Source: a plasmid
Length of the DNA: 64,000 nt
Assembly (NCBI RefSeq): GCF_054482595.1
Contig: NZ_JBTHVH010000004.1
Strand: one strand, 5' to 3'
Shown here: piece by piece, positions 17,434-47,401 of the stretch
Layout: every line of letters starts with the position of its first letter
Position numbering within the stretch: position 1 is the first letter of the stretch
The notes under the pieces: generated by a model
Databases searched by the model: none
Told to the model about the DNA's origin: nothing
Seen by the model: only the letters and a program-made list of their open reading frames with translations
Made by a program: the position numbers and the translations under genes

Positions 17434-17455
17434 CACAGCAACAAAGGAAACAGGT

Positions 17456-17911: not shown

Positions 17912-17933
17912 TCCACATCCCTAAGGGTAAAAT

Positions 17934-27215: not shown

Positions 27216-27461
27216 ATGAGAGAGCCAAGACCACGCCATACCTTGCAGGTCATTCGTGTACCTTCTCTGGAGGTTCAGGACCTGGGGCTGACCAGCTTTG
27301 ATAGCTGGCTTGACGAGCACGGGTATGACAAAACGAATGCCAGAAATAACCGTACCATCTGGGCGAGAGAAGGCGGATGGCATCTGAAACGTTGCAGAAA
27401 TCTTGAAACTGGCACGGACGATTTCTGGTTTATCGCTTTCGATGGTAAAGGCGGGAAGATT
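27216..27461 (+). pseudogene. Hypothetical gene truncated at its 3' end by IS26
   Basis: The reading frame runs directly into the IS26 terminal inverted repeat at 27462. Confidence 0.4.
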
Positions 27462-28281: not shown

Positions 28282-28304
28282 GTTGATCGTGCTATGATCG
28301 ACTG

Positions 28305-29108
28305 ATGTCATCAGCGGTGGAGTGCAATGTCGTGCAATACGAATGGCGAAAAGCCGAGCTCATCGGTCAGCTTCTCAACCTTGGGGTTACCCCCGGCGGT
28401 GTGCTGCTGGTCCACAGCTCCTTCCGTAGCGTCCGGCCCCTCGAAGATGGGCCACTTGGACTGATCGAGGCCCTGCGTGCTGCGCTGGGTCCGGGAGGGA
28501 CGCTCGTCATGCCCTCGTGGTCAGGTCTGGACGACGAGCCGTTCGATCCTGCCACGTCGCCCGTTACACCGGACCTTGGAGTTGTCTCTGACACATTCTG
28601 GCGCCTGCCAAATGTAAAGCGCAGCGCCCATCCATTTGCCTTTGCGGCAGCGGGGCCACAGGCAGAGCAGATCATCTCTGATCCATTGCCCCTGCCACCT
28701 CACTCGCCTGCAAGCCCGGTCGCCCGTGTCCATGAACTCGATGGGCAGGTACTTCTCCTCGGCGTGGGACACGATGCCAACACGACGCTGCATCTTGCCG
28801 AGTTGATGGCAAAGGTTCCCTATGGGGTGCCGAGACACTGCACCATTCTTCAGGATGGCAAGTTGGTACGCGTCGATTATCTCGAGAATGACCACTGCTG
28901 TGAGCGCTTTGCCTTGGCGGACAGGTGGCTCAAGGAGAAGAGCCTTCAGAAGGAAGGTCCAGTCGGTCATGCCTTTGCTCGGTTGATCCGCTCCCGCGAC
29001 ATTGTGGCGACAGCCCTGGGTCAACTGGGCCGAGATCCGTTGATCTTCCTGCATCCGCCAGAGGCGGGATGCGAAGAATGCGATGCCGCTCGCCAGTCGA
29101 TTGGCTGA
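28305..29108 (+). CDS. aac(3)-IV: Aminoglycoside 3-N-acetyltransferase AAC(3)-IV (apramycin/gentamicin resistance)
   Basis: Translation matches the recalled AAC(3)-IV sequence ('YEWRKAELIGQLLNLGVTPGGVLLVHSSFRSV...'); starts 23 bp after the IS26 end. Confidence 0.85.
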   Translation: MSSAVECNVVQYEWRKAELIGQLLNLGVTPGGVLLVHSSFRSVRPLEDGPLGLIEALRAALGPGGTLVMPSWSGLDDEPFDPATSPVTPDLGVVSDTFWRLPNVKRSAHPFAFAAAGPQAEQIISDPLPLPPHSPASPVARVHELDGQVLLLGVGHDANTTLHLAELMAKVPYGVPRHCTILQDGKLVRVDYLENDHCCERFALADRWLKEKSLQKEGPVGHAFARLIRSRDIVATALGQLGRDPLIFLHPPEAGCEECDAARQSIG

Positions 29109-29336
29109 GCTCATGAGCGGAGAACGAGATGACGTTGGAGGGGCAAGGTCGCGCTGATTGCTGGGGCAACACGTGGAGCGGATCGGGGATTGTCTTTCTT
29201 CAGCTCGCTGATGATATGCTGACGCTCAATGCCGTTTGGCCTCCGACTAACGAAAATCCCGCATTTGGACGGCTGATCCGATTGGCACGGCGGACGGCGA
29301 ATGGCGGAGCAGACGCTCGTCCGGGGGCAATGAGAT

Positions 29337-30362
29337 ATGAAAAAGCCTGAACTCACCGCGACGTCTGTCGAGAAGTTTCTGATCGAAAAGTTCGACAGCG
29401 TCTCCGACCTGATGCAGCTCTCGGAGGGCGAAGAATCTCGTGCTTTCAGCTTCGATGTAGGAGGGCGTGGATATGTCCTGCGGGTAAATAGCTGCGCCGA
29501 TGGTTTCTACAAAGATCGTTATGTTTATCGGCACTTTGCATCGGCCGCGCTCCCGATTCCGGAAGTGCTTGACATTGGGGAATTCAGCGAGAGCCTGACC
29601 TATTGCATCTCCCGCCGTGCACAGGGTGTCACGTTGCAAGACCTGCCTGAAACCGAACTGCCCGCTGTTCTGCAGCCGGTCGCGGAGGCCATGGATGCGA
29701 TCGCTGCGGCCGATCTTAGCCAGACGAGCGGGTTCGGCCCATTCGGACCGCAAGGAATCGGTCAATACACTACATGGCGTGATTTCATATGCGCGATTGC
29801 TGATCCCCATGTGTATCACTGGCAAACTGTGATGGACGACACCGTCAGTGCGTCCGTCGCGCAGGCTCTCGATGAGCTGATGCTTTGGGCCGAGGACTGC
29901 CCCGAAGTCCGGCACCTCGTGCACGCGGATTTCGGCTCCAACAATGTCCTGACGGACAATGGCCGCATAACAGCGGTCATTGACTGGAGCGAGGCGATGT
30001 TCGGGGATTCCCAATACGAGGTCGCCAACATCTTCTTCTGGAGGCCGTGGTTGGCTTGTATGGAGCAGCAGACGCGCTACTTCGAGCGGAGGCATCCGGA
30101 GCTTGCAGGATCGCCGCGGCTCCGGGCGTATATGCTCCGCATTGGTCTTGACCAACTCTATCAGAGCTTGGTTGACGGCAATTTCGATGATGCAGCTTGG
30201 GCGCAGGGTCGATGCGACGCAATCGTCCGATCCGGAGCCGGGACTGTCGGGCGTACACAAATCGCCCGCAGAAGCGCGGCCGTCTGGACCGATGGCTGTG
30301 TAGAAGTACTCGCCGATAGTGGAAACCGACGCCCCAGCACTCGTCCGAGGGCAAAGGAATAG
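29337..30362 (+). CDS. hph: Hygromycin B phosphotransferase APH(4)-Ia
   Basis: 'MKKPELTATSVEKFLIEKFDSVSDLMQLSEGEESRAFSFDVGGRGYVLRVN...' matches recalled Hph. Confidence 0.9.
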   Translation: MKKPELTATSVEKFLIEKFDSVSDLMQLSEGEESRAFSFDVGGRGYVLRVNSCADGFYKDRYVYRHFASAALPIPEVLDIGEFSESLTYCISRRAQGVTLQDLPETELPAVLQPVAEAMDAIAAADLSQTSGFGPFGPQGIGQYTTWRDFICAIADPHVYHWQTVMDDTVSASVAQALDELMLWAEDCPEVRHLVHADFGSNNVLTDNGRITAVIDWSEAMFGDSQYEVANIFFWRPWLACMEQQTRYFERRHPELAGSPRLRAYMLRIGLDQLYQSLVDGNFDDAAWAQGRCDAIVRSGAGTVGRTQIARRSAAVWTDGCVEVLADSGNRRPSTRPRAKE

Positions 30363-30367
30363 AGTAG

Positions 30368-30729
30368 ATGCCGACCGAACAAGAGCTGATTTCGAGAACG
30401 CCTCAGCCAGCAACTCGCGCGAGCCTAGCAAGGCAAATGCGAGAGAACGGCCTTACGCTTGGTGGCACAGTTCTCGTCCACAGTTCGCTAAGCTCGCTCG
30501 GCTGGGTCGCGGGAGGGCCGGTCGCAGTGATTCAGGCCCTTCTGGATTGTGTTGGTCCCCAGGGCACGATTGTCATGCCCACGCACTCGGGTGATCTGAC
30601 TGATCCCGCAGATTGGAGATCGCCGCCCGTGCCTGCCGATTGGGTGCAGATCTTGCGCAACGAGATGCCGGCATACGATCCGCAAACCACACCAACTCGG
30701 AACATGGGTGCAGTGGCTGAATTGTTCCG
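30368..30729 (+). pseudogene. 3'-truncated AAC(3)-family acetyltransferase gene
   Basis: First 120 codons resemble the AAC(3) N-terminus ('GGTVLVHSSLSSLG...GTIVMPTHSGDLTDP'); the frame is cut by the IS6-family element at about 30730. Confidence 0.5.
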
Positions 30730-31619
30730 GGCGTGTCGCAAACACTTTTGGAGGCAGCTATCACCCAGCCAAGGCCGGTATTTTCATGCTTTGTTAACCT
30801 TTTGCAGTCCGAAGAGGCGCGCAAGCAAATCATTCTGGTCATTGACGGTCCAGCCGCCTGAAAAGCCAAAGCCCTTCCGCAGCCACAGCATCGCCTCGAA
30901 ACCCGCGATGGTTCGCCGCGCCGTGTTAAAGGATTGGAAACCGCCGATCTTCGGCATGTTCTTCTTCACCCGGAAATGGTCGCTCTCAATCCCCTGCTGG
31001 AGATGTTTGGTCACATAATGCACGGGATCGGGATGGAGAAGCCCATCATCAACCGACGTTTTGATCGTTGACGGGAAGGTGTTGGCCCCGTCCGTCCCAA
31101 TCCTGTTCGGCGACAACAAGGGTTCATCTTTAAGCATCTTTCGGAAGAACCGCTTGGCAGCGTCGAGATCGCGCTTAGCGGTCAGCAGGAAATCCACCGG
31201 ATTGCCATGCTTATCGATGGCTCGGTACAGATAGCGCCATTTGCCGCGGATCTTGACATAGGTCTCATCAATCCGGACCGAGCCGCAATGGGGTCGACGA
31301 AACTGCCGCAGCCGTTTCTCGATGACAGGTGCATAAGCCAATACCCAGCGGTTGATCGTGCTATGATCGACCTCGAAGCCCCGCTCGCGAAACATCTCTT
31401 CCAAGTCACGATAGCTGAGCGGGTAGCGCAAGTACCAGGCAACCGCCTGTACAATCAGCCAGGCCTCGAAATGCCTGCCCTTGAAATCATCCTTCGACTG
31501 GCGCTTCAGCTTTTCGGCAATGGTATTCAAAATCATCGGCTCGCTCCGCAATATCAGGAGCGGCAACTTCTCTCCCCATGGTCAACATCGAGTTAACCTG
31601 AAGAATTTGCGACAAGGCC
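30730..31619 (-). mobile_element. IS6-family insertion sequence, distinct from IS26 (about 890 bp)
   Basis: Imperfect terminal repeats GGCGTGTCGCAAA (left) and GGCCTTGTCGCAAA (right, reverse complement) flanking a 260-aa IS6-type transposase; exact IS name not determined. Confidence 0.7.
30784..31566 (-). CDS. IS6-family transposase (260 aa)
   Basis: Same domain layout as IS26 Tnp ('FKGRHFEAWLIVQAVAWYLRYPLSYRDLEEM...') but divergent in sequence. Confidence 0.8.
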   Translation of the reverse strand: MPLLILRSEPMILNTIAEKLKRQSKDDFKGRHFEAWLIVQAVAWYLRYPLSYRDLEEMFRERGFEVDHSTINRWVLAYAPVIEKRLRQFRRPHCGSVRIDETYVKIRGKWRYLYRAIDKHGNPVDFLLTAKRDLDAAKRFFRKMLKDEPLLSPNRIGTDGANTFPSTIKTSVDDGLLHPDPVHYVTKHLQQGIESDHFRVKKNMPKIGGFQSFNTARRTIAGFEAMLWLRKGFGFSGGWTVNDQNDLLARLFGLQKVNKA

Positions 31620-33121
31620 ATGCGTTCCGCTCCGGAGATGTCTGGCTTACTAGGTCCCGGCGCTATGGCGATCTGAAACACGCACTCGTTCCGGCACAAT
31701 CCATCGCGGAAGGCGGTCGTCTCGCTGTGCCATTGCGGCCGGAGGAATGGCTGGCAGACCGGCAAGCTCGCCTCGACATGCGGTTGCGCGAGCTTGGCCG
31801 TGCCGCTCGCGCAGGCACGATCCCGGGCGGGTCGATTGAAAACGGCGTTCTGCATATCGAGAAACTCGAAGCCGCCGCGCCGACAGGCGCCGAAGATCTG
31901 GTGCTCGATCTCTACAAGCAGATCCCGCCCACGCGCATCACCGATCTCCTGCTGGAGGTGGATGCGGCGACCGGCTTCACCGAAGCGTTCACCCATCTGC
32001 GCACAGGAGCACCCTGCGCTGACCGGATCGGGCTAATGAACGTTATCTTGGCGGAAGGGATCAACCTCGGCTTGCGCAAAATGGCGGATGCGACAAACAC
32101 CCACACCTTCTGGGAATTGATCCGCATTGGACGGTGGCATGTCGAGGGCGAAGCCTATGACCGGGCGCTGGCCATGGTGGTCGAGGCACAGGCAGCGTTA
32201 CCCATGGCCCGGTTCTGGGGCATGGGCACGTCGGCTTCGAGCGACGGACAGTTCTTCGTCGCTACAGAGCAAGGTGAGGCCATGAACCTGGTCAACGCGA
32301 AATATGGCAATACCCCGGGCCTGAAAGCCTATAGCCACGTCTCCGACCAATATGCGCCGTTCGCAACCCAGGTGATTCCTGCAACGGCAAGCGAAGCGCC
32401 TTACATCCTCGATGGCCTGCTGATGAACGATGCTGGACGCCATATCCGCGAGCAGTTCACCGACACGGGCGGCTTCACCGATCACGTCTTTGCCGCATGT
32501 GCCATTCTCGGCTACCGGTTCGCTCCGCGCATCCGCGACCTGCCATCCAAACGGCTCTACGCGTTCAATCCGTCGGCCGCCCCGGCGCACCTGCGAGCGT
32601 TGATCGGCGGAAAGGTCAACCAAGCCATGATCGAGCGCAATTGGCCCGACATCCTGCGCATCGCCGCCACCATTGCTGCCGGGACCGTCGCGCCAAGCCA
32701 GATTCTGCGGAAACTCGCCTCCTATCCGCGGCAGAACGAGCTCGCGACAGCCCTGCGGGAAGTCGGTCGCGTCGAGCGCACCCTGTTCATGATCGACTGG
32801 ATTCTGGATGCCGAACTCCAACGGCGTGCCCAGATCGGGCTCAACAAAGGCGAAGCTCATCATGCGCTGAAGCGGGCAATCAGCTTCCACCGCCGCGGTG
32901 AAATCCGCGACCGTTCCGCCGAAGGCCAGCATTACCGCATCGCCGGCATGAATCTGCTCGCCGCCATCATCATCTTCTGGAACACCATGAAGCTCGGCGA
33001 GGTCGTTGCAAACCAGAAACGCGATGGAAAGCTGCTATCGCCCGATCTCTTGGCCCATGTTTCGCCGCTCGGATGGGAACACATCAATCTCACCGGAGAA
33101 TATCGCTGGCCAAAGCCTTAG
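31620..33121 (+). pseudogene. tnpA: 5'-truncated Tn3-family transposase gene (Tn5393-type tnpA, C-terminal about 500 codons)
   Basis: Homologous by eye to the C-terminal half of the 995-aa TnpA at 50492..53479 ('...SPLGWEHINLTGEYRW'); the track ORF start lies inside the IS6 element so the 5' end is missing. Confidence 0.7.
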
Positions 33122-33153
33122 CGTAGGATTCCGCCCCCTCCCGCAAACGACCC
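33073..33153. repeat. Tn5393-type 81-bp terminal inverted repeat (tnpA end)
   Basis: Reverse complement reads 'GGGGTCGTTTGCGGGAGGGGGCGGAATCCTACGCTAAGGCTTTGGCCAGCGATATTCTCCGG...', matching the recalled Tn5393 IR; overlaps the tnpA 3' end. Confidence 0.6.
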
Positions 33154-33154
33154 C

Positions 33155-34066
33155 GTGATGACCCTGCAGGCATCCCCTGAGACCCGGTTAATGCGCGCCG
33201 AGGTGCAGCGGCATTATCCGCACATCTGGCAGGAGCTGGAGGGGCTGGCGCAGGGACTGGAGGCCACTGTTGATCAGGTCTTTGCCTGGAACTGCCGTGG
33301 CGATCTGGTGCGCTCAACGTCGGATGGCTGTACGACGGTGGCCGGGGTAAACGCCGCAGGCGAGCGGATTATCGCGCATAATGAAGACGGTTTTCCTCAG
33401 TTACGGGATGAATGCTTGCTGGCTACCATTACTCCGAGTCGCGGTCTGAGCTTTACGAGTTTTGCCTATCCGGGGTCGATTTGCGGCCACACCTTTGCGG
33501 TAAATGAAAAAGGTATCGTTAACACGGTGAATAACATCCGTGCAGTGTATCGTCCGCAGGGATTACCGCGTCAGATCCTGGCTCGCGCCTCGCTGAATGC
33601 GAACACCCTCGACGAGGCCATCACTATACTTACCGGCCAGCCGCGATCCGGGGCGTTTCACCATACGCTCGGGCAGCTGGGCGATGCGCGGCTGTTCAGC
33701 GTTGAGGCCACCGGTCAAGGCTGTTCCGTTCTACCCCTGACGACGGTAACCGGGCATGCCAACCATCTGGTGCATGCGGCACTGGCTGGCGTTGAGCAGA
33801 TCGTTACCGACAGTTCAGCGTCGCGGCAGTTACGCCTCGTGCAGTGGCGGGAAACGCAACCTCCGTTTGACGCCGCGGCGGCAAAAACCATTCTCTCAGA
33901 TACCCATGACGCAGAACTGCCAATTTACCGGCTGGCTGCCGACGATCCGGATGAGGAGAACACCCTCGCCACGGCAGTTTTCACCCTCGATGCCAACCAC
34001 GTCAGGTGGCAAATTTTCGACATTAACCGCGACGATGCTAAATTTCATGGAGAAGTGCGTGGGTGA
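33155..34066 (+). CDS. Hypothetical Ntn-hydrolase / peptidase C45-like protein (303 aa)
   Basis: ORF with 'DGCTT' candidate nucleophile context; family assignment is tentative. Confidence 0.45.
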   Translation: MMTLQASPETRLMRAEVQRHYPHIWQELEGLAQGLEATVDQVFAWNCRGDLVRSTSDGCTTVAGVNAAGERIIAHNEDGFPQLRDECLLATITPSRGLSFTSFAYPGSICGHTFAVNEKGIVNTVNNIRAVYRPQGLPRQILARASLNANTLDEAITILTGQPRSGAFHHTLGQLGDARLFSVEATGQGCSVLPLTTVTGHANHLVHAALAGVEQIVTDSSASRQLRLVQWRETQPPFDAAAAKTILSDTHDAELPIYRLAADDPDEENTLATAVFTLDANHVRWQIFDINRDDAKFHGEVRG

Positions 34067-34219
34067 AATAGCCGGTCGTCAGTCATAAAGGGCAGGGGAG
34101 TACCGTTGGCCCGGCGTTCGATAGTACCGTCCGGATACTGCCAGATATCGGCGTCCAGGGAGATGTCCTGAAGCGCGGTGTCCGGAATTTCAGGTTTGTG
34201 TCTCTACAAAGACTAACTA

Positions 34220-35035
34220 TCAGAAAAACTCATCGAGCATCAAATGAAACTGCAATTTATTCATATCAGGATTATCAATACCATATTTTTGAAAAAGCCG
34301 TTTCTGTAATGAAGGAGAAAATTCACCGAGGCAGTTCCATAGGATGGCAAGATCCTGGTATCGGTCTGCGATTCCGACTCGTCCAACATCAATACAACCT
34401 ATTAATTTCCCCTCGTCAAAAATAAGGTTATCAAGTGAGAAATCACCATGAGTGACGACTGAATCCGGTGAGAATGGCAAAAGCTTATGCATTTCTTTCC
34501 AGACTTGTTCAACAGGCCAGCCATTACGCTCGTCATCAAAATCACTCGCATCAACCAAACCGTTATTCATTCGTGATTGCGCCTGAGCGAGACGAAATAC
34601 GCGATCGCTGTTAAAAGGACAATTACTAACAGGAATCGAATGCAACCGGCGCAGGAACGCTGCCAGCGCATCAACAATATTTTCACCTGAATCAGGATAT
34701 TCTTCTAATACCTGGAATGCTGTTTTCCCGGGGAGCGCAGTGGTGAGTAACCATGCATCATCAGGAGTACGGATAAAATGCTTGATGGTCGGAAGAGGCA
34801 TAAATGCCGTCAGCCAGTTTAGTCTGACCATCTCATCTGTAACATCATTGGCAACGCTACCTTTGCCATGTTTCAGAAACAACTCTGGCGCATCGGGCTT
34901 CCCATACAATCGATAGATTGTCGCACCTGATTGCCCGACATTATCGCGAGCCCATTTATACCCATATAAATCAGCATCCAGGTTGGAATTTAATCGCGGC
35001 CTCGAGCAAGACGTTTCCCGTTGAATATGGCTCAT
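34220..35035 (-). CDS. aph(3')-Ia: Aminoglycoside 3'-phosphotransferase APH(3')-Ia (kanamycin/neomycin resistance)
   Basis: 'MSHIQRETSCSRPRLNSNLDADLYGYKWARDNVGQSGATIYRLYGKPDAPELFLKHGKG...' matches recalled Tn903 AphA1. Confidence 0.9.
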   Translation of the reverse strand: MSHIQRETSCSRPRLNSNLDADLYGYKWARDNVGQSGATIYRLYGKPDAPELFLKHGKGSVANDVTDEMVRLNWLTAFMPLPTIKHFIRTPDDAWLLTTALPGKTAFQVLEEYPDSGENIVDALAAFLRRLHSIPVSNCPFNSDRVFRLAQAQSRMNNGLVDASDFDDERNGWPVEQVWKEMHKLLPFSPDSVVTHGDFSLDNLIFDEGKLIGCIDVGRVGIADRYQDLAILWNCLGEFSPSLQKRLFQKYGIDNPDMNKLQFHLMLDEFF

Positions 35036-35139
35036 AACACCCCTTGTATTACTGTTTATGTAAGCAGACAGTTTTATTGTTCATGATGATATATTTTTAT
35101 CTTGTGCAATGTAACATCAGAGATTTTGAGACACAACGT

Positions 35140-35264
35140 GGATTTGTTGAATAAATCGAACTTTTGCTGAGTTGAAGGATCAGATCACGCATCTTCCCGA
35201 CAACGCAGACCGTTCCGTGGCAAAGCAAAAGTTCAAAATCACCAACTGGCCCACCTACAATAAA
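35140..35264. mobile_element. IS903 end remnant (about 125 bp) upstream of aph(3')-Ia
   Basis: 'GGATTTGTTGAATAAATCGAACTTTTGCTGAGTTGAAGGATCAGATCACGC...' resembles the IS903 terminal repeat and adjoining sequence of Tn903; cut by the Tn5393 IR. Confidence 0.5.
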
Positions 35265-35345
35265 GGGGTCGTTTGCGGGAGAGGGCGAAATCCTACGCTA
35301 AGGCTTTGGCCAACGATATTCTCCGGTAAGATTGATGTGTTCCCA
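35265..35345. repeat. Tn5393-type 81-bp terminal inverted repeat (strB end)
   Basis: 'GGGGTCGTTTGCGGGAGAGGGCGAAATCCTACGCTAAGGCTTTGGCCAACGATATTCTCCGG...' immediately downstream of strB. Confidence 0.6.
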
Positions 35346-35370
35346 GGGGATAGGAGAAGTCGCTTGATAT

Positions 35371-36207
35371 CTAGTATGACGTCTGTCGCACCTGCTTGAT
35401 CGCGGCCGCGATAGCTAGATCGCGTTGCTCCTCTTCTCCATCCGCGTTCCAAGCTGCGGAAAGGCACCCATAAGCGTACGCCTGGTCGAGCAGGCGACGC
35501 GGATCGACGTCCAGCGCACGAGAGAATGCGTCCGCCATCTGTGCAATGCGTCTAGGATCGAGACAAAGGTCGTCTCTGTCAGCCGGATCGTAGAACATAT
35601 TGGCGGCGCCAAAGCCCACTTCACCGACCAGACCGACGGGATCTATCACCAGCCAGCCGCGACTGGAGAACATGATGTTTTCATGATGCAGATCGCCATG
35701 TAGCCCACGCAGTTCCGAGGCATTGCTCATCATTTGATCGGCTATAATCGCCGCGTGGACGTAGTCAGTTTGACAACCTGCGTTTTGATCATCGCGCGCC
35801 CGCTGAAACAAAGCTGCAAAGCGATCCCGGATCGGGAGAAGGGCAGAAGGCAGGGGTTCCTCAGATGCGGCATACAGCTTCGCCATTAGTTCCGCTGCAA
35901 TTTCGGTCGCCTGGTAGTCGCCGTGCTCGGCAACGATGTGAGAGAGCATTCGCTCCCCGGCATATTCGAGCAACATCAGATTGTTCTCACGACCGAGCAA
36001 CCGGACTGCTCCCCTCCCATTGCGCCATACCAGATAGTCGGCCCCGCGCAGTTCATCAGCAATGTCTTCTATAGGTTTCAATTCCTTGACGATTGCAGGA
36101 GTCCCGTCTGGCAATGAAACTTTCCAAACGAGGCTGGAAAAGGTGTCCGCAATGAGAACAGGTTGCGAAACGTGCCAATGAGCAGGAAAAACAGGCGGCA
36201 TGAACAT
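35371..36207 (-). CDS. strB: Streptomycin phosphotransferase APH(6)-Id
   Basis: 'MFMPPVFPAHWHVSQPVLIADTFSSLVWKVSLPDGTPAIVK...' matches recalled StrB; its ATG shares one base with the strA stop. Confidence 0.9.
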   Translation of the reverse strand: MFMPPVFPAHWHVSQPVLIADTFSSLVWKVSLPDGTPAIVKELKPIEDIADELRGADYLVWRNGRGAVRLLGRENNLMLLEYAGERMLSHIVAEHGDYQATEIAAELMAKLYAASEEPLPSALLPIRDRFAALFQRARDDQNAGCQTDYVHAAIIADQMMSNASELRGLHGDLHHENIMFSSRGWLVIDPVGLVGEVGFGAANMFYDPADRDDLCLDPRRIAQMADAFSRALDVDPRRLLDQAYAYGCLSAAWNADGEEEQRDLAIAAAIKQVRQTSY

Positions 36208-37010
36208 CAACCCCAAGTCAGAGGGTCCAATCGCAGATAGAAGGCAAGGCGTTCGCGGTCGGGGGCTTCGATCCCCAATACATTGAATAGGACAGCGAAG
36301 GCGCGCTCTGCTTCATCTGGCGCTGCCCAGTTCTCTTCGGCGTTAGCAATCATGAGTGCCAAATCGGCATAGCGATCTGCTGTTCCGAGCCGCCCAAGGT
36401 CGATCAGACCCGTGCATTGAAGAGTTTTAGGGTCCACCATGAAGTTCGGCATGCAGGGATCACCATGGCAAACAACCATATCGGTGCGCTCTTGGTCGAG
36501 CCGCACCGGTAGCTCTCGTTCGACACGAGCCAAAAGATCGAGCTGCGGCGTACTCTTGTCCTCGTCCGGTAAGAAGTCGGGATTGACGGCATTGCGGGAC
36601 ACCACATCAACGGCGCGTCCGAACATTCGCGACAGCCTGCGCTCAAACGGACATTGATCAACCGATAGGCTGTGAACAGCGCCAAGTTGCTGCCCCATTG
36701 ACGGCCACGCTTTGAGCAAATCCGCTCCAGACAGATCAGCCGCCGGTACTCCCGGAATTGCCGTTATCACCAAGCATGCACCCTCCTGTTCCTCCTGCCA
36801 GTTGATCACCTCGGGGCAAGCCACACCTCGACCTTTGAGCCAAATGAGGCGGTCACGCTCTCCAGCGAGCTCACCGCGGCGGGAAGCAGGTGCGATTTTC
36901 GCGAAGGCATGCCCGTCACCACGTCGAAAAACAAAATCACCAGATTCTCCGCCTCTGACAGGCAACCAGTCAGAATGCGATTCACCAAAAAAAATATTAG
37001 TTCGATTCAA
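36207..37010 (-). CDS. strA: Streptomycin phosphotransferase APH(3'')-Ib
   Basis: '(M/L)NRTNIFFGESHSDWLPVRGGESGDFVFRRGDGHAFAKIAP...' matches recalled StrA; TTG start at 37010 with GAAGGA RBS. Confidence 0.9.
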   Translation of the reverse strand: MNRTNIFFGESHSDWLPVRGGESGDFVFRRGDGHAFAKIAPASRRGELAGERDRLIWLKGRGVACPEVINWQEEQEGACLVITAIPGVPAADLSGADLLKAWPSMGQQLGAVHSLSVDQCPFERRLSRMFGRAVDVVSRNAVNPDFLPDEDKSTPQLDLLARVERELPVRLDQERTDMVVCHGDPCMPNFMVDPKTLQCTGLIDLGRLGTADRYADLALMIANAEENWAAPDEAERAFAVLFNVLGIEAPDRERLAFYLRLDPLTWG

Positions 37011-37302
37011 TGGAGGTTCCTTCAGTTTTCTGATGAAGCGCGGAGGTGGCTCAACCTGCGAAAAGAAACGAGTTGCTATGGACTTGCACCGGTTGTGTTC
37101 CGGTCTATCTCTCATTTTAAGCGGCTTTTTTCTCAAATGCCACCGGCGATTTCCAGCCGAGTGTTGAATGTCTTCGGCGTGGATTATAAAAGCCATTTAC
37201 CCATATAATGCGCCTACTTATCAGCCTTTGGGACGTTGGGACGGTATTTTTCACTATATACCCCCAAGTTTTTAGACATGAAAAAAGGGTAATGACTCCA
37301 AC

Positions 37303-37806
37303 TTATTGATAGTGTTTTATGTTCAGATAATGCCCGATGACTTTGTCATGCAGCTCCACCGATTTTGAGAACGACAGCGACTTCCGTCCCAGCCGTGCCA
37401 GGTGCTGCCTCAGATTCAGGTTATGCCGCTCAATTCGCTGCGTATATCGCTTGCTGATTACGTGCAGCTTTCCCTTCAGGCGGGATTCATACAGCGGCCA
37501 GCCATCCGTCATCCATATCACCACGTCAAAGGGTGACAGCAGGCTCATAAGACGCCCCAGCGTCGCCATAGTGCGTTCACCGAATACGTGCGCAACAACC
37601 GTCTTCCGGAGCCTGTCATACGCGTAAAACAGCCAGCGCTGGCGCGATTTAGCCCCGACGTATCCCCACTGTTCGTCCATTTCCGCGCAGACGATGACGT
37701 CACTGCCCGGCTGTATGCGCGAGGTTACCGACTGCGGCCTGAGTTTTTTAAGTGACGTAAAATCGTGTTGAGGCCAACGCCCATAATGCGGGCTGTTGCC
37801 CGGCAT
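37303..37806 (-). CDS. insB: IS1 InsB (expressed as InsAB' by frameshift)
   Basis: 167-aa ORF overlapping insA in the -1 frame, as in IS1. Confidence 0.85.
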
Positions 37807-38000
37807 CCAACGCCATTCATGGCCATATCAATGATTTTCTGGTGCGTACCGGGTTGAGAAGCGGTGTAAGTGAACTGCAGTTGCCATGTTTTACGGCAGT
37901 GAGAGCAGAGATAGCGCTGATGTCCGGCGGTGCTTTTGCCGTTACGCACCACCCCGTCAGTAGCTGAACAGGAGGGACAGCTGATAGAAACAGAAGCCAC
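37725..38000 (-). CDS. insA: IS1 InsA
   Basis: '[43 protein letters not shown]...'. Confidence 0.9.
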
Positions 38001-38055
38001 TGGAGCACCTCAAAAACACCATCATACACTAAATCAGTAAGTTGGCAGCATCACC

Positions 38056-38234
38056 CGACGCACTTTGCGCCGAATAAATACCTGTGACGGAAGATCACTT
38101 CGCAGAATAAATAAATCCTGGTGTCCCTGTTGATACCGGGAAGCCCTGGGCCAACTTTTGGCGAAAATGAGACGTTGATCGGCACGTAAGAGGTTCCAAC
38201 TTTCACCATAATGAAATAAGATCACTACCGGGCG
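38056..38234. other. Tn9 remnant: catA1 upstream/promoter region without the cat gene
   Basis: 'CGACGCACTTTGCGCCGAATAAATACCTGTGACGGAAGATCACTTCGCAG...TTTCACCATAATGAAATAAGATCACTACCGGGCG' is the recalled sequence between IS1 and cat in Tn9/pACYC184-type DNA. Confidence 0.65.
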
Positions 38235-38793
38235 CTGAGAGATCCCCTCATAATTTCCCCAAAGCGTAACCATGTGTGAATAAATTTTGAGCTAGTAGGG
38301 TTGCAGCCACGAGTAAGTCTTCCCTTGTTATTGTGTAGCCAGAATGCCGCAAAACTTCCATGCCTAAGCGAACTGTTGAGAGTACGTTTCGATTTCTGAC
38401 TGTGTTAGCCTGGAAGTGCTTGTCCCAACCTTGTTTCTGAGCATGAACGCCCGCAAGCCAACATGTTAGTTGAAGCATCAGGGCGATTAGCAGCATGATA
38501 TCAAAACGCTCTGAGCTGCTCGTTCGGCTATGGCGTAGGCCTAGTCCGTAGGCAGGACTTTTCAAGTCTCGGAAGGTTTCTTCAATCTGCATTCGCTTCG
38601 AATAGATATTAACAAGTTGTTTGGGTGTTCGAATTTCAACAGGTAAGTTAGTTGCTAGAACCCATGGCTCCTTTGCCGACGCTGAGTAGATTTTAGGTGA
38701 CGGGTGGTGACAATGAGTCCGTGTCGAGCGCTGATTTTTTCGGCCTTTAGAGCGAGATTTATACAATAGAATTTGGCATGAGATTGGATTGCT
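38235..38793 (-). mobile_element. IS10 fragment (terminal about 560 bp, transposase C-terminus), truncated by IS26
   Basis: Starts with the IS10 end 'CTGAGAGATCCCCTCATAATTTCCCCAAAGCGTAACC'; the encoded C-terminal fragment ends '...LFTHGYALGKL'. Confidence 0.7.
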
Positions 38794-39613
38794 GGCACTG
38801 TTGCAAAGTTAGCGATGAGGCAGCCTTTTGTCTTATTCAAAGGCCTTACATTTCAAAAACTCTGCTTACCAGGCGCATTTCGCCCAGGGGATCACCATAA
38901 TAAAATGCTGAGGCCTGGCCTTTGCGTAGTGCACGCATCACCTCAATACCTTTGATGGTGGCGTAAGCCGTCTTCATGGATTTAAATCCCAGCGTGGCGC
39001 CGATTATCCGTTTCAGTTTGCCATGATCGCATTCAATCACGTTGTTCCGGTACTTAATCTGTCGGTGTTCAACGTCAGACGGGCACCGGCCTTCGCGTTT
39101 GAGCAGAGCAAGCGCGCGACCATAGGCGGGCGCTTTATCCGTGTTGATGAATCGCGGGATCTGCCACTTCTTCACGTTGTTGAGGATTTTACCCAGAAAC
39201 CGGTATGCAGCTTTGCTGTTACGACGGGAGGAGAGATAAAAATCGACAGTGCGGCCCCGGCTGTCGACGGCCCGGTACAGATACGCCCAGCGGCCATTGA
39301 CCTTCACGTAGGTTTCATCCATGTGCCACGGGCAAAGATCGGAAGGGTTACGCCAGTACCAGCGCAGCCGTTTTTCCATTTCAGGCGCATAACGCTGAAC
39401 CCAGCGGTAAATCGTGGAGTGATCGACATTCACTCCGCGTTCAGCCAGCATCTCCTGCAGCTCACGGTAACTGATGCCGTATTTGCAGTACCAGCGTACG
39501 GCCCACAGAATGATGTCACGCTGAAAATGCCGGCCTTTGAATGGGTTCATGTGCAGCTCCATCAGCAAAAGGGGATGATAAGTTTATCACCACCGACTAT
39601 TTGCAACAGTGCC
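38794..39613 (-). mobile_element. IS26 copy 2
   Basis: Identical terminal repeats and transposase; boundary set by the fixed 52/45-bp offsets from the tnp ORF; no target-site duplication. Confidence 0.95.
38846..39550 (-). CDS. tnpA: IS26 transposase
   Basis: Identical to copy 1. Confidence 0.95.
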   Translation of the reverse strand: MNPFKGRHFQRDIILWAVRWYCKYGISYRELQEMLAERGVNVDHSTIYRWVQRYAPEMEKRLRWYWRNPSDLCPWHMDETYVKVNGRWAYLYRAVDSRGRTVDFYLSSRRNSKAAYRFLGKILNNVKKWQIPRFINTDKAPAYGRALALLKREGRCPSDVEHRQIKYRNNVIECDHGKLKRIIGATLGFKSMKTAYATIKGIEVMRALRKGQASAFYYGDPLGEMRLVSRVFEM

Positions 39614-39664
39614 ACTTGACCTGATAGTTTGGCTGTGAGCAATTATGTGCTTAGTGCATCTAAC
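39614..39664 (-). other. Class 1 integron 3'-conserved-segment start (51 bp), truncated by IS26
   Basis: Reverse complement 'GTTAGATGCACTAAGCACATAATTGCTCACAGCCAAACTATCAGGTCAAGT' is the recalled beginning of the 3'-CS upstream of qacEdelta1. Confidence 0.6.
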
Positions 39665-39702
39665 GTCAAAATCAGCGGCGCGTTTTTATGCGTCCGCTGG
39701 AT

Positions 39703-40524
39703 TTACTTGTTGTGCGGCGTCGCAGACTCATTGAACAACCTTTTTGCCTGCGCAATTACAGTTCTCGGAAGCTCGATATTCAGAGGTTCTGTCACGCTCT
39801 TGAACAATTCGAGACTCCACGTCCACGTTTGATGATAGGCTGCACATAGTGCTCTTGGTTCTGCACTGCTTGTGCATGCCAGATAGCGATTATACGAGTC
39901 CTCCGAGATATCCTTTTCGAGCGCGCGTGAAGGTGTCGGCCAGTGGTCTGTTGCCCCTTCGTGGAGTCGAACCAGCTTGAGTAGGTTTTCATGTGCTTTG
40001 CTGAGCAAAGCCCAGGCGCGAGCGTACTCTCCCCGATTTAAAAGATTGGCCCCAAAGAGCATCAGGCTGATGAGGTTCAACACAAGCCCTTCCACCAGCG
40101 GCGCGCCTTCACGTATCGGGGGACCGCCCACGAGAGCGCTTGCGTACCTTGACAACTCTCCTGATCGGTCCAACAAAACAGCCGCCTCAAGCGAGGGAAA
40201 CCACCCATAGCCTTGCCAAGTGGAAATGACCGGTATGTCCGATTTTCGCATGAAATGGAATTCACCGCGAATGCCGTTTTCAAAAAGTGCGGTGTGGTGG
40301 CCGAAGTCGTCCGGAAAGTAAGCAGCAACCGGACTTACGGCATTAAGCCACGAGCGCTGATCGAAATTTTCAAAATGGTCATCCTGGATGAACACTGCGA
40401 ATTCGATATCAGAGAACTCGTCACCCTCTCCGATAGCAAATGAGCCGAACATCAATGCCGCGATTATTCGTGCATCCTCATGACAACCTTCCTTGAAGAG
40501 TTCGATCATTTTCAGTTGAAGCAT
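39703..40524 (-). CDS. lnu(F): Lincosamide nucleotidyltransferase Lnu(F)
   Basis: 273 aa 'MLQLKMIELFKEGCHEDARIIAALMFGSFAIGEGDEFSDIEFAVFIQDD...' matches recalled Lnu(F); second cassette position. Confidence 0.8.
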   Translation of the reverse strand: MLQLKMIELFKEGCHEDARIIAALMFGSFAIGEGDEFSDIEFAVFIQDDHFENFDQRSWLNAVSPVAAYFPDDFGHHTALFENGIRGEFHFMRKSDIPVISTWQGYGWFPSLEAAVLLDRSGELSRYASALVGGPPIREGAPLVEGLVLNLISLMLFGANLLNRGEYARAWALLSKAHENLLKLVRLHEGATDHWPTPSRALEKDISEDSYNRYLACTSSAEPRALCAAYHQTWTWSLELFKSVTEPLNIELPRTVIAQAKRLFNESATPHNK

Positions 40525-40589
40525 AGAAATATCCTTTTATTGAAGCCACAGATTATGAGGAAAGGTATACGCAGATTTTTGTTTTTTTT

Positions 40590-40655
40590 CGTCAGCACAA
40601 CGCCGGAGTTAAGCCGCCGCGCGTAGCGCGGTCGGCTTGAACGAATTGTTAGACA
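40590..40655 (-). other. attC (59-base element) of the aadA2 cassette (approximate)
   Basis: Imperfect palindromic region 'GTCTAACAATTCGTTCAAGCCGACCGCGCTACGCGCGGCGGCTTAACTCCGGCGTT' between the aadA2 stop and lnu(F). Confidence 0.5.
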
Positions 40656-41447
40656 TTATTTGCCGATTACCTTGGTGATCTCGCCTTTCACGTAGTGGAC
40701 AAATTCTTCCAACTGATCTGCGCGCGAGGCCAAGCGATCTTCTTCTTGTCCAAGATAAGCCTGTCTAGCTTCAAGTATGACGGGCTGATACTGGGCCGGC
40801 AGGCGCTCCATTGCCCAGTCGGCAGCGACATCCTTCGGCGCGATTTTGCCGGTTACTGCGCTGTACCAAATGCGGGACAACGTAAGCACTACATTTCGCT
40901 CATCGCCAGCCCAGTCGGGCGGCGAGTTCCATAGCGTTAAGGTTTCATTTAGCGCCTCAAATAGATCCTGTTCAGGAACCGGATCAAAGAGTTCCTCCGC
41001 CGCTGGACCTACCAAGGCAACGCTATGTTCTCTTGCTTTTGTCAGCAAGATAGCCAGATCAATGTCGATCGTGGCTGGCTCGAAGATACCTGCAAGAATG
41101 TCATTGCGCTGCCATTCTCCAAATTGCAGTTCGCGCTTAGCTGGATAACGCCACGGAATGATGTCGTCGTGCACAACAATGGTGACTTCTACAGCGCGGA
41201 GAATCTCGCTCTCTCCAGGGGAAGCCGAAGTTTCCAAAAGGTCGTTGATCAAAGCTCGCCGCGTTGTTTCATCAAGCCTTACGGTCACCGTAACCAGCAA
41301 ATCAATATCGCTGTATGGCTTCAGGCCGCCATCCACTGCGGAGCCGTACAAATGCACGGCCAGCAACGTTGATTCCAGATGGCGCTCAATGACGCTTAGC
41401 ACCTCTGATAGTTGGTTCGAAATTTCGATGGTCACCGCTACCCTCAT
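40656..41447 (-). CDS. aadA2: Aminoglycoside 3''-adenylyltransferase AadA2
   Basis: 'MRVAVTIEISNQLSEVLSVIERHLESTLLAVHLYGSAVDGGLKPYSDIDLL...'; preceded by the 5'-CS sequence '...AAAACAAAGTTAGACATCATGAGGGTAGCGGTGAC'. Confidence 0.9.
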   Translation of the reverse strand: MRVAVTIEISNQLSEVLSVIERHLESTLLAVHLYGSAVDGGLKPYSDIDLLVTVTVRLDETTRRALINDLLETSASPGESEILRAVEVTIVVHDDIIPWRYPAKRELQFGEWQRNDILAGIFEPATIDIDLAILLTKAREHSVALVGPAAEELFDPVPEQDLFEALNETLTLWNSPPDWAGDERNVVLTLSRIWYSAVTGKIAPKDVAADWAMERLPAQYQPVILEARQAYLGQEEDRLASRADQLEEFVHYVKGEITKVIGK

Positions 41448-41595
41448 GATGTCTAACTTTGTTTTAGGGCGACTGCCCTGCTGCGTAACATCGTTGCTGC
41501 TCCATAACATCAAACATCGACCCACGGCGTAACGCGCTTGCTGCTTGGATGCCCGAGGCATAGACTGTACCCCAAAAAAACAGTCATAACAAGCC

Positions 41596-41716
41596 ATGAA
41601 AACCGCCACTGCGCCGTTACCACCGCTGCGTTCGGTCAAGGTTCTGGACCAGTTGCGTGAGCGCATACGCTACTTGCATTACAGCTTACGAACCGAACAG
41701 GCTTATGTCCACTGGG
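41596..41716 (+). pseudogene. intI1: intI1 truncated after about 40 codons by IS26
   Basis: '[40 protein letters not shown]' then the IS26 inverted repeat. Confidence 0.85.
41683..41711 (-). promoter_or_regulatory. Integron cassette promoter Pc (weak variant: -35 TGGACA, -10 TAAGCT, 17-bp spacer)
   Basis: Reverse complement reads 'TGGACATAAGCCTGTTCGGTTCGTAAGCT'; the -35 lies 5 bp from the IS26 end. Confidence 0.65.
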
Positions 41717-42536
41717 GGCACTGTTGCAAATAGTCGGTGGTGATAAACTTATCATCCCCTTTTGCTGATGGAGCTGCACATGAACCCATTCAAAGGCCGG
41801 CATTTTCAGCGTGACATCATTCTGTGGGCCGTACGCTGGTACTGCAAATACGGCATCAGTTACCGTGAGCTGCAGGAGATGCTGGCTGAACGCGGAGTGA
41901 ATGTCGATCACTCCACGATTTACCGCTGGGTTCAGCGTTATGCGCCTGAAATGGAAAAACGGCTGCGCTGGTACTGGCGTAACCCTTCCGATCTTTGCCC
42001 GTGGCACATGGATGAAACCTACGTGAAGGTCAATGGCCGCTGGGCGTATCTGTACCGGGCCGTCGACAGCCGGGGCCGCACTGTCGATTTTTATCTCTCC
42101 TCCCGTCGTAACAGCAAAGCTGCATACCGGTTTCTGGGTAAAATCCTCAACAACGTGAAGAAGTGGCAGATCCCGCGATTCATCAACACGGATAAAGCGC
42201 CCGCCTATGGTCGCGCGCTTGCTCTGCTCAAACGCGAAGGCCGGTGCCCGTCTGACGTTGAACACCGACAGATTAAGTACCGGAACAACGTGATTGAATG
42301 CGATCATGGCAAACTGAAACGGATAATCGGCGCCACGCTGGGATTTAAATCCATGAAGACGGCTTACGCCACCATCAAAGGTATTGAGGTGATGCGTGCA
42401 CTACGCAAAGGCCAGGCCTCAGCATTTTATTATGGTGATCCCCTGGGCGAAATGCGCCTGGTAAGCAGAGTTTTTGAAATGTAAGGCCTTTGAATAAGAC
42501 AAAAGGCTGCCTCATCGCTAACTTTGCAACAGTGCC
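41717..42536 (+). mobile_element. IS26 copy 3
   Basis: Terminal repeats at both ends; opposite orientation to copies 1 and 2. Confidence 0.95.
41780..42484 (+). CDS. tnpA: IS26 transposase
   Basis: Identical to the other copies. Confidence 0.95.
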   Translation: MNPFKGRHFQRDIILWAVRWYCKYGISYRELQEMLAERGVNVDHSTIYRWVQRYAPEMEKRLRWYWRNPSDLCPWHMDETYVKVNGRWAYLYRAVDSRGRTVDFYLSSRRNSKAAYRFLGKILNNVKKWQIPRFINTDKAPAYGRALALLKREGRCPSDVEHRQIKYRNNVIECDHGKLKRIIGATLGFKSMKTAYATIKGIEVMRALRKGQASAFYYGDPLGEMRLVSRVFEM

Positions 42537-42964
42537 GTAAAGGCGGCCTTATCCACCATTTCCCGAACAAGCAGGCGCTAATATTCGCCCTGTTCGCGCG
42601 TCTGCTGGCAATCATGGAAGAAGCGATTACCGCGCTGATGCAACAGGATGGCGTGAGCTATGGCCGGTTTACCCGCGCCTATCTGAACTATCTGGCGGAT
42701 CTCACGGACACCCATGAAAGCCGCCAGCTTATGGTTTTGTCGCTGGCAATGCCCGATGAACCGGTGCTGCGCAAATGCTGGCGCGACTGGATGCTGGAGA
42801 AACTGGCGCAGGGCGATGAGCTGGATAACAGCCCAACCGGCACGCTGGTGCGCTACGCCGCTGACGGCATCTGGCTTTCGGAGTTGACGGAAGGGATCAC
42901 CATGAGCGCCGACCACCGTCGCGCGCTGGTTGACTCCCTGAATAAAATGACGCTTCCCGCGTGA
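42537..42964 (+). pseudogene. 5'-truncated TetR-family regulator gene (C-terminal ligand-binding part only)
   Basis: The reading frame continues from inside the IS26 end; no N-terminal HTH remains. Confidence 0.5.
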
Positions 42965-43772: not shown

Positions 43773-44290
43773 TGAGACTCGCGCCGCGTCCGTTCTTTGC
43801 CCTCTGCGTTCTGGTATTTATTGCCGCCGCCGCGTTTAGCGCCTGGCGGCTGCTGCCTGCCGACAACGCGGGTGTCATGAGCTGTTCCACTAAGGGCATC
43901 ATGCGCTTTGAGAACATGGACAAAGAGAACGTTAACGGCAATATTCACTTCAATTTTGGCGCGCAGGGTAAAGGCTCGATGGTGGTCGAAGGTTACACCG
44001 ACTCCGCCGCCGGCTGGCTCTACCTGCAACGCTACGTGAAGTTTACCTACAGCAGCAAACGCATCTCGGCCACCGAGCGTCATTACCGCATCAATCAGTG
44101 GGAATCGAGCGCCTCCTCGATTGATGAATCGCCGAACGTGATTTTCGACTACTTTATGCGCGAGATGTCCGACAGCCACGACGGGCTGTTTCTCAACGCT
44201 CAGAAGCTCAACGAAAAGGCTATCTTGCTCAGCTCTATCAATTCACCGCTGTGGATCTGCACGTTGAAATCCGGCAGTAAGCTGAACTAA
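43772..44290 (+). CDS. Hypothetical exported/membrane protein (172 aa)
   Basis: ORF with an N-terminal hydrophobic segment; start overlaps the upstream stop. Confidence 0.45.
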   Translation: MRLAPRPFFALCVLVFIAAAAFSAWRLLPADNAGVMSCSTKGIMRFENMDKENVNGNIHFNFGAQGKGSMVVEGYTDSAAGWLYLQRYVKFTYSSKRISATERHYRINQWESSASSIDESPNVIFDYFMREMSDSHDGLFLNAQKLNEKAILLSSINSPLWICTLKSGSKLN

Positions 44291-44294
44291 CCCG

Positions 44295-44711
44295 TCAATC
44301 AAAAAAGACCATCCCCTTGTAGGGGCGTTCGCGACAGGCGGCCAGCCGCTGCGCCAGATTCCCCACATGCAGCTCCAGCTTATGGCCGTCAGGGTCGAGA
44401 AAATAGTAAGACGCCCCTTCACTGCGGTTATCTTTCCATACCTCAGCCCCCGCCTGCGCCAGCAGAGCCACCACCCCGGCAAACTCTTCTTCCGCCACGC
44501 TGAAGGCGTAGTGGGTATAGTCGCTTTCCTGAGGGGGCGTTTTACGCCGCTGCTCATCCAGCGACAAGCACAGCCACAGCGCCCCACAGGAGAGATAGGC
44601 TCCGCTATCCCAGCTGGCGTGCAGGCGCATTCCAGGTAACTGCTGATAAAATGCCAGGCTTGACGCCAGATCGCTGACCGCCAGCGTCAGATGATTCAAT
44701 CCCTGCAGCAT
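44295..44711 (-). CDS. fosA3: Fosfomycin thiol transferase FosA3
   Basis: 138 aa '[54 protein letters not shown]...' matches recalled FosA3; ATG at 44711. Confidence 0.9.
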
Positions 44712-46703: not shown

Positions 46704-46741
46704 CTTAACGTGAGTTTTCGTTCCACTGAGCGTCAGACCCC
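46704..46741. repeat. Tn2/Tn3 38-bp terminal inverted repeat
   Basis: 'CTTAACGTGAGTTTTCGTTCCACTGAGCGTCAGACCCC' downstream of blaTEM. Confidence 0.85.
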
Positions 46742-47355
46742 GTATATCGCTTGCTGATTACGTGCAGCTTTCCCTTCAGGCGGGATTCATACAGCGGCCA
46801 GCCATCCGTCATCCATATCACCACGTCAAAGGGTGACAGCAGGCTCAGAAGACGCTCCAGTGTGGCCAGAGTGCGTTCACCGAAAACGTGCGCCACAACT
46901 GTCCTCCGTATCCTGTCATACGCGTAAAACAGCCAGCGCTGACGTGATTTAGCACCGACGTAGCCCCACTGTTCGTCCATTTCAGCGCAGACAATCACAT
47001 CACTGCCCGGTTGTATGCGCGAGGTTACCGACTGCGGCCTGAGTTTTTTAAGTGACGTAAAACCGTGTTGAGGCCAACGCCCATAATGCGGGCAGTTGCC
47101 CGGCATCCAACGCCATTCATGGCCATATCAATGATTTTCTGGTGCGTACCGGGTTGAGAAGCGGTGTAAGTGAACTGCAGTTGCCATGTTTTACGGCAGT
47201 GAGAGCAGAGATAGCGCTGGTGTCCGGCAGTGCTTTTGCCGTTACGCACCACCCCGTCAGTAGCTGAACAGGAGGGACAGCTGATAGAAACAGAAGCCAC
47301 TGGAGCACCTCAAAAACACCATCATACACTAAATCAGTAAGTTGGCAGCATCACC
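46742..47355 (-). mobile_element. IS1, truncated (about 614 bp; insA intact, insB 3'-truncated)
   Basis: Matches the full IS1 at 37288..38055 from an internal point to the insA-proximal end '...GTTGGCAGCATCACC'; abuts the Tn2 IR. Confidence 0.85.
47025..47300 (-). CDS. insA: IS1 InsA
   Basis: Near-identical to insA at 37725..38000. Confidence 0.85.
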
Positions 47356-47401
47356 CGATGCAGCTTTCGTCAATCATGACAGTTATGAGTTTTCCGGTTA
47401 C

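Follow-up and report, generated by a model that had tools for sequence, protein, structure and literature searches.

The segment at positions 37288-38793 of the window (the whole stretch of plasmid DNA that was analysed, 64,000 nucleotides) is very probably a non-functional scar left by successive mobile-element events in the multiresistance region of an IncHI2 plasmid. It is composed of a complete IS1, a 179-bp relic of the catA1 leader region and a fragment of IS10 that is cut by IS26. A first-pass annotation of this DNA had proposed a record of at least three successive events, and the IS1-cat module, the IS10 insertion and the IS26 truncation are indeed all evidenced. The alignment that it had suggested as a check was carried out with plasmid R100 as reference, and it proved right for every component and within 1 bp for every boundary. 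The arrangement itself is ordinary and already known, from dozens of database plasmids and from published maps of IncHI2/ST3 plasmids. It is only mildly new that the spacer between IS1 and IS10 is a cat leader, and that the reciprocal IS10 junction of this leader survives in IncF plasmids.

Components of the segment

The features of the segment and of its flanks are listed below (window coordinates, strand, description).

37197-37287, strand not assigned: 91-bp scrap abutting the left end of IS1, with which it travels in other plasmids
37288-38055, minus: complete IS1, 768 bp, insA-proximal end (IRL) toward the cat-leader relic
37303-37806, minus: insB', 167 aa, within IS1
37725-38000, minus: insA, 91 aa, within IS1
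38056-38234, plus: relic of the IS1-catA1 spacer of Tn9/Tn2670, 179 bp, with the promoter region of cat and the beginning of the leader
38062-38066, plus: ACTTT, target of Tn7051, unoccupied in the window (from PMC8920835 and comparison with pNDM33-1)
38226-38234, plus: TACCGGGCG, the 9-bp IS10 target copy beside the IS10 inside end, i.e. the last 9 bp of the relic
38235-38793, minus: IS10 fragment, 559 bp, nucleotides 1-559 counted from the inside end
38248-38793, minus: truncated IS10 transposase gene, last 181 of 402 codons plus the stop codon (the full gene of R100 has 1209 nt)
38794-39613, minus: complete IS26, 820 bp, tnp26 on the minus strand, cutting the IS10 stub
39614-39665, strand not assigned: start of the 3'-conserved segment of a class 1 integron, 52 bp joined to IS26

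Members of the IS1 family are about 768 bp long and have imperfect terminal inverted repeats of about 23 bp. The copy in the window was rightly called complete: it measures 768 bp, its ends GGTAATGACTCCAACTTATTGAT and GGTGATGCTGCCAACTTACTGAT pair as terminal inverted repeats, the insA and insB' frames are intact, and the A6C frameshift motif (AAAAAAC) is present at nucleotide 307. PGAP annotates it in identical plasmids as a programmed-frameshift IS1A transposase. Compared base by base, it is 99.5% identical to IS1b of R100, with four mismatches all located inside IS1 (37752, 37755, 37758 and 37794), and it differs from IS1A of E. coli K-12 by three mismatches. No 9-bp target duplication surrounds this IS1, as its flanks ACATGAAAAAAG and CGACGCACTTTG differ, and the wider context (...ATGAAAAAAG, IS1, CGACGCACT...) contains no duplication of 8-9 bp either. 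This absence is expected, the right flank being the interior of a Tn9-type composite. The copy is a member of the IS1 family, but it is no simple insertion. The other IS1-type sequence of the window (46741-47367) is partial, 95-96% identical, and adjoins blaTEM-1.

The layering extends to the left of IS1, where the interval up to strA contains the 91-bp scrap and a 121-bp end of IS1133. The scrap is 100% identical and adjoins IS1 in the three related plasmids compared, with different DNA further left in pSCE516-1. In p_dm600b_NDM1, the same 91 bp are located toward the 3' end of an ORF annotated as resolvase-type. On the left of the scrap, the retained right end of IS1133, about 121 bp long, is preceded by the Tn5393 sequence that lies upstream of strA.

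To the right of IS1, BLAST aligned window positions 37288-38234 with positions 21992-21046 of R100 (NC_002134), that is, with IS1b and the 179 bp before catA1, over 947 bp at 99.58% identity and without gaps. The relic alone (38056-38234) is identical to R100 21224-21046 at 179 of 179 positions in a base-by-base comparison, in which the reference was R100/Tn2670 rather than a Tn9 record. The assignment of these 179 bp to the region upstream of catA1 in Tn9 thus stands, and judging from the bases the relic appears to fit Tn9 proper and the Tn2670/R100 r-determinant equally, the IS1-cat junction being common to both. Perfect identity across the 179 bp of the relic and the 559 bp of the IS10 fragment excludes a chance match. 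The relic stops 44 nt short of the position of the cat ATG, so that the ribosome-binding site and the cat gene are gone; no catA1 sequence is found anywhere in the 64-kb window, nor is a second, directly repeated IS1 that would bracket the relic. When a 271-bp probe spanning the relic/IS10 junction was used, hundreds of ordinary Tn9-type cat loci matched up to 38234 only, and ordinary IS10 copies matched from 38235 only, or from 38232 when the IS10 was part of Tn10. The match of engineered cat cassettes in phage records to the relic likewise ends at 38234.

The IS10 fragment is 100% identical to IS10-right of R100 over 559 bp and begins exactly at the inside terminus CTGAGAGATCC. At all seven sites that separate IS10-right from IS10-left it is of the right type. 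By BLAST, window positions 38232-38793 correspond to R100 43947-44508 (IS10-right), with a lone mismatch at 38234, outside IS10. The fragment had previously been described as the terminal 560 bp of IS10; it is an IS10 end fragment, but its length is 559 bp. The surviving end is the inside end, with the 3' end of the transposase gene. Nucleotides 560-1329 are missing, and with them the promoter, the start codon, pIN/pOUT, the first 221 codons and the outside end. No IS10 sequence beyond nucleotides 1-559 is found elsewhere in the 64-kb window, which therefore holds neither a two-ended IS10 of 1329 bp nor a transposase of 402 aa. In identical plasmids, PGAP annotates the stub as a partial ISVsa5/IS4-like transposase. 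Being one-ended and without transposase, it is predicted to be unable to move or to supply transposase.

The relic/IS10 junction reads ...gatcac TACCGGGCG followed directly by CTGAGAGATCC or, with longer flanks, ...GATCACTACCGGGCG and then CTGAGAGATCCCC.... The join lies exactly at the terminus of IS10, which is the signature of a joining made by transposase. Microhomology, or bases internal to Tn10, at this join was considered and rejected, since the 3-bp overrun of the BLAST match holds a mismatch (GCG in the window, GCA in R100). The uninterrupted leader of R100 contains TACCGGGCG once (...gatcacTACCGGGCGtattttttgag...). The window has one copy of this 9-bp target, and the other copy, beside an outside end of IS10, comes from other plasmids only.

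On its right side, the IS10 fragment is abutted at 38794 by a complete IS26, in agreement with the initial reading that IS26 had cut it. This IS26 has the size expected, an intact tnp26 (annotated by PGAP as IS26 transposase) and perfect 14-bp inverted repeats, GGCACTGTTGCAAA at both ends. It is identical to four other copies in the window, which has five in all. No 8-bp target duplication is present around it (flanks GGATTGCT vs. ACTTGACC), in contrast with the copy at 48989-49808, which has CTTCTGGT on both sides. The lack of a duplication indicates that cat, the second 9-bp copy and the remainder of IS10 disappeared either in a deletion mediated by IS26 or by recombination of IS26 copies with each other; both are standard behaviours of IS26 (reviewed in PMC9330008). 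With a probe made of IS26, GGATTGCT and IS10 from nucleotide 560 onward, the best matches listed were IS26 cuts at other positions of IS10. A 10-mer common to the flanks of two IS26 copies was discarded as a clue, given that about 5% of random flank sets drawn from this repeat-rich window share one. Beyond IS26, positions 39614-39665 are 100% identical to R100 13431-13482, located between aadA1 and qacEdelta1, and next come the minus-strand cassettes lnu(F) and aadA2, as annotated in identical plasmids.

The reciprocal junction in IncF plasmids

The partner junction predicted from an insertion of IS10 in the cat leader was then used as a query in PLSDB; in it, the outside end of IS10 is followed by TACCGGGCG, the remainder of the cat leader, and catA1. 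This reciprocal junction was found in 20 PLSDB plasmids (IncF), and all 15 among the matches listed were single-piece matches with 100% coverage. We read the junction directly in pMG336 and p13C1079T-1, where ...GGGGATTCATCAG is followed by TACCGGGCG and by tattttttgag... up to the ATG of catA1; with the following leader, it reads ...GGGGATTCATCAG, TACCGGGCG, TATTTTTTGAG.... The same 9 bp are therefore present in the same orientation relative to cat, next to the inside end of IS10 in the window and next to its outside end in the IncF plasmids.

The outside part of IS10 is left-type in 14 of the 15 reciprocal-junction plasmids listed, pMG336 alone being right-type. In pMG336, the IS10 beside cat is left-type at nucleotides 30-81 and right-type at nucleotides 427-1306. 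On the basis of these diagnostic sites, such a hybrid would be the expected product of a crossover between a solo IS10 of the right type and the IS10-left of Tn10. The left-type outside parts nevertheless speak against one right-type ancestor, as they could be reached from it only by gene conversion or by a crossover in the terminal 23 bp.

The cat gene of the reciprocal-junction plasmids lies in a Tn2670/Tn21 context, so the ancestral cat module was probably of the Tn2670 type. It is probable that one shared insertion lies behind both junctions. More specifically, we somewhat favour the view that the inside-end half of the IncHI2/ST3 plasmids and the outside-end half with catA1 of the IncF plasmids derive from one ancient IS10 insertion, with TACCGGGCG as the marker of their shared ancestry from a single Tn2670::IS10 progenitor, the segments of which would have been exchanged by IS10/IS26 recombination. 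The intact intermediate, with IS1, relic, complete IS10 and cat in one molecule, was not found in PLSDB. Among 5,426 complete E. coli genomes, none has the relic joined to IS10 past nucleotide 559, the best coverage (81%) corresponding to IS10 alone. Plasmid pZM3 of Salmonella Wien was examined as a candidate intermediate and rejected: the IS10-right of its Tn10 is cut by the IS1 of a cat module, which is a different and unrelated junction. No description of IS10 in the catA1 leader was found in the literature searched. Near its outside end, IS10 has an outward promoter, Pout, by which neighbouring genes can be activated (PMC9330008). From its position, Pout may read into cat in the IncF plasmids, and the persistence of the outside-end half may be explained in this way.

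Proposed history and competing explanations

From these components and boundaries, we infer the following order of events. An IS1-catA1 module of Tn9/Tn2670 type would have been in place at the start. A single IS10 of the right type would then have inserted in the cat leader, 44 nt before the ATG, with duplication of TACCGGGCG and with its inside end toward IS1 and its outside end toward cat. Lastly, an IS26-associated event, either an intramolecular replicative transposition or an insertion followed by recombination between IS26 copies, would have eliminated cat, the second 9-bp copy and all of IS10 past nucleotide 559, and would have joined the stub to the aadA2/lnu(F) integron. The first-pass annotation had IS10 replacing cat. 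The cat gene is gone and IS10 is in place, but according to the proposed history IS10 inserted in the leader, and it was the IS26 event that would have removed cat.

The main competitor of a single shared insertion is that IS10 hit the same 9-bp site of the cat leader twice independently, because the site is a hot spot or because insertions there are selected through the outward promoter. IS10 has a strong target preference. The right type of the stub in the window, set against the left type of 14 of the 15 IncF junctions listed, also points this way, as do the position of the IncF IS10 as the left arm of Tn10 and the capacity of Pout to activate a neighbouring gene (PMC9330008). Nevertheless, the two junctions are exactly reciprocal, sharing the 9 bp as well as the orientation relative to cat. 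Moreover, TACCGGGCG fits only three of the six specified positions of the IS10 target consensus NGCTNAGCN. An insertion of the whole Tn10 in the leader would also predict the relic joined to an outside end of IS10 (CTGATGAATCC), for which PLSDB has 0 records, and the hybrid IS10 of pMG336 fits recombination with a solo copy of the right type. We thus regard two independent hits as unlikely, although they retain some weight. With one hit or with two, an IS10 insertion in the cat leader is part of the history of this locus. A second competitor dispenses with a solo insertion altogether and derives the relic/IS10 join from an inside-out deletion or inversion promoted by Tn10. The end found at the relic is the inside end, inside ends are those used in Tn10-promoted deletions and inversions, and Tn10 and Tn9-type cat modules co-occur on plasmids such as pZM3 and R100. 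Such a rearrangement should, however, leave an inside end at the reciprocal junction too, where an outside end with the same 9 bp was found, and the join holds no bases internal to Tn10 (GCG in the window vs. GCA in R100). This origin of the join therefore seems quite improbable.

A chimeric assembly across repeated insertion sequences would be conceivable in such a repeat-dense region, with five identical IS26 and two IS1-type sequences in the window. However, the IS1/relic, relic/IS10 and IS10/IS26 junctions all involve unique sequence, 47 PLSDB plasmids and 35 E. coli replicons, obtained by many laboratories from many hosts, show them base for base, and positions 27462-41716 are 100% identical over 14,255 bp to pXD35001. 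An artefact is hardly credible under these conditions. The scar could also be functional today if the retained cat promoter drove a downstream gene or an antisense RNA. The relic still holds what is conventionally annotated as the cat promoter region, and this would presumably point rightward into the IS10 stub. On the plus strand, however, it meets only the antisense of the truncated transposase gene and then IS26, and the genes that come next, tnp26, lnu(F) and aadA2, are without exception minus-strand genes. A simple consensus scan, which misses the cat promoter, detected no sigma-70-like site on the plus strand of the relic; over 37950-38900, the one hit of the scan for consensus promoters and terminators was a minus-strand site inside IS1. 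In addition, derived plasmids tolerate a 13.9-kb transposon inside the relic (PMC8920835). A working promoter thus appears very improbable. Present function would be limited to the intact IS1 and the intact IS26, the scrap of cat promoter apparently serving no gene.

Distribution and comparison with known elements

The relic/IS10 junction was detected in 47 PLSDB plasmids, and the IS26 junction was directly matched in 45 of them; in the other two the reading was not clean, as the match is split in one and truncated by the record end in the other. The relic/IS10 junction was also detected in 34 of the 5,426 complete E. coli genomes (RefSeq), on 35 replicons in total. According to the records examined and the papers linked to them, the carriers are nearly all IncHI2 plasmids and come mainly from China. 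They were carried by E. coli, Salmonella, Klebsiella and E. fergusonii, isolated from pigs, poultry, ducks, wild birds, sewage and patients. The plasmid pXD35001, which shares the 14,255 bp at 27462-41716, is itself an IncHI2 plasmid. The gene hipA lies upstream of the resistance region in the window, and this position matches the published location of the IncHI2 resistance region (PMC8398143). In the identical plasmids, the neighbouring annotation comprises aph(4)-Ia, aph(3')-Ia, strA-strB, lnu(F), aadA2 and blaTEM-1.

The locus has been published in IncHI2/ST3 plasmids as IS1 ... deltaIS10-IS26-lnu(F)-aadA2, and the maps name the spacer only as "between IS1 and IS10R" (PMC8920835). In a sub-lineage, the IS3000-bounded transposon Tn7051, which carries blaNDM-5, is inserted at this place with duplication of the 5 bp ACTTT (PMC8920835). 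In pNDM33-1, the end of IS3000 is followed by ACTTT and then by the relic, and in 10-12 PLSDB records the match starts at window position 38061.

Two common insertion sequences are all that the segment encodes, and its biological weight is small. Its relic/IS10 and IS10/IS26 junctions are specific markers of this IncHI2 lineage. As the relic is the documented landing site of Tn7051, a PCR across 38056-38234 tells an empty site from an occupied one. Once the spacer is recognised as a cat leader, the presence of IS1 and IS10 debris in these plasmids, which have neither cat nor tet(B), is explained. If the single event is true, the IncF reciprocal junction shows, cleanly and on a small scale, how recombination can disperse both halves of one insertion.

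Compared with Tn9 and with the IS1b-catA1 end of Tn2670 (R100/NR1), the window has the same succession of IS1 and the identical 179 bp that precede catA1, but it lacks cat, its ribosome-binding site and the second IS1 in direct repeat, and is therefore a remnant and no transposon. Compared with the IS10-right of Tn10, the stub is identical over nucleotides 1-559, inside terminal inverted repeat included. The Tn10-catA1-Tn21 regions of IncF plasmids (pMG336, p13C1079T-1 and the pPCN033 plasmid, among others) hold the reciprocal half of the IS10 insertion site. They differ from the window in that their IS10 is complete, mostly left-type and part of Tn10 as its left arm, with catA1, ybjA and Tn21 after it and with IS1 and the relic absent on the IS10 side. 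Relative to the IncHI2/ST3 plasmids, the window represents the form without Tn7051, and its resistance region outside 27462-41716 is arranged unlike that of pXD35001; the segment itself is nevertheless the same base for base in pTB-nb4, pXD35001, pSCE516-1 and the pre-Tn7051 form of pNDM33-1, and the hipA landmark is shared.

Remnants on either side of the complete IS1

Two further scraps lie in the interval between strA and the complete IS1, and a second IS1-type sequence lies further along the window.

Window 37079-37287: two scraps, strA to IS1 interval
Window 46741-47367: partial, divergent IS1-type sequence adjoining blaTEM-1

The first scrap is the right end of IS1133 (about 121 bp), and its position upstream of strA is that seen in Tn5393 with IS1133. 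The second, 91 bp long, also occurs in p_dm600b_NDM1, in the 3' portion of a resolvase-type ORF. In pSCE516-1, an IncHI2/ST3 plasmid with the same IS1-relic-IS10-IS26 structure, these 91 bp are still joined to IS1, although the sequence farther left carries aac(3)-IVa rather than strA. The sequence beside blaTEM-1 is 95-96% identical to the complete IS1 and does not form a Tn9 pair with it; in identical plasmids it is annotated as an IS1-family transposase, frameshifted and truncated.

IS26 flanks and the aadA2-type cassette

Among the five IS26 copies of the window, only the one at 48989-49808 is flanked on both sides by the same 8-bp target duplication (CTTCTGGT), and it therefore results from a simple insertion. 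This duplication is also mentioned for IncHI2 plasmids (PMC8920835). In addition, the 10-mer GTAAAGGCGG occurs twice in the window, at 27445-27454, 7 bp short of where the IS26 at 27462 has its left end, and at 42537-42546, directly after the IS26 at 41717-42536. Since about 5% of random flank sets drawn from the window have a 10-mer in common, the sharing of this motif by two IS26 flanks may be due to chance.

Window 40656-41666: aadA2-type cassette with an open reading frame (336 aa, an upstream extension being counted in)

In the otherwise identical plasmids pTB-nb4 and pXD35001 the aadA gene is flagged as frameshifted by PGAP, whereas the frame is open here; this may be a true difference or may stem from a sequencing error in the two records.

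Tn10 and catA1 in IncF plasmids

The left IS10 of Tn10 lies beside catA1 in two IncF plasmids.

pMG336 (NZ_MK878891.1) 16968-18296: left IS10 of Tn10, by catA1
p13C1079T-1 3971-5299: left IS10 of Tn10, by catA1

This left IS10 is inserted 44 nt upstream of catA1; the insertion parts cat from its own promoter and sets the outward promoter of IS10 ahead of it. In pMG336 this IS10 is a left/right hybrid, with a crossover between nt 81 and 427 from the inside end. In pZM3 (NZ_MK797990.1, 6001-7476), an IncF plasmid of Salmonella Wien, it is the IS1 of the catA1 module that truncates the IS10-right of Tn10, at a distance of about 530 bp from the inside terminus. This junction is a separate, independent collision between Tn10 and Tn9.
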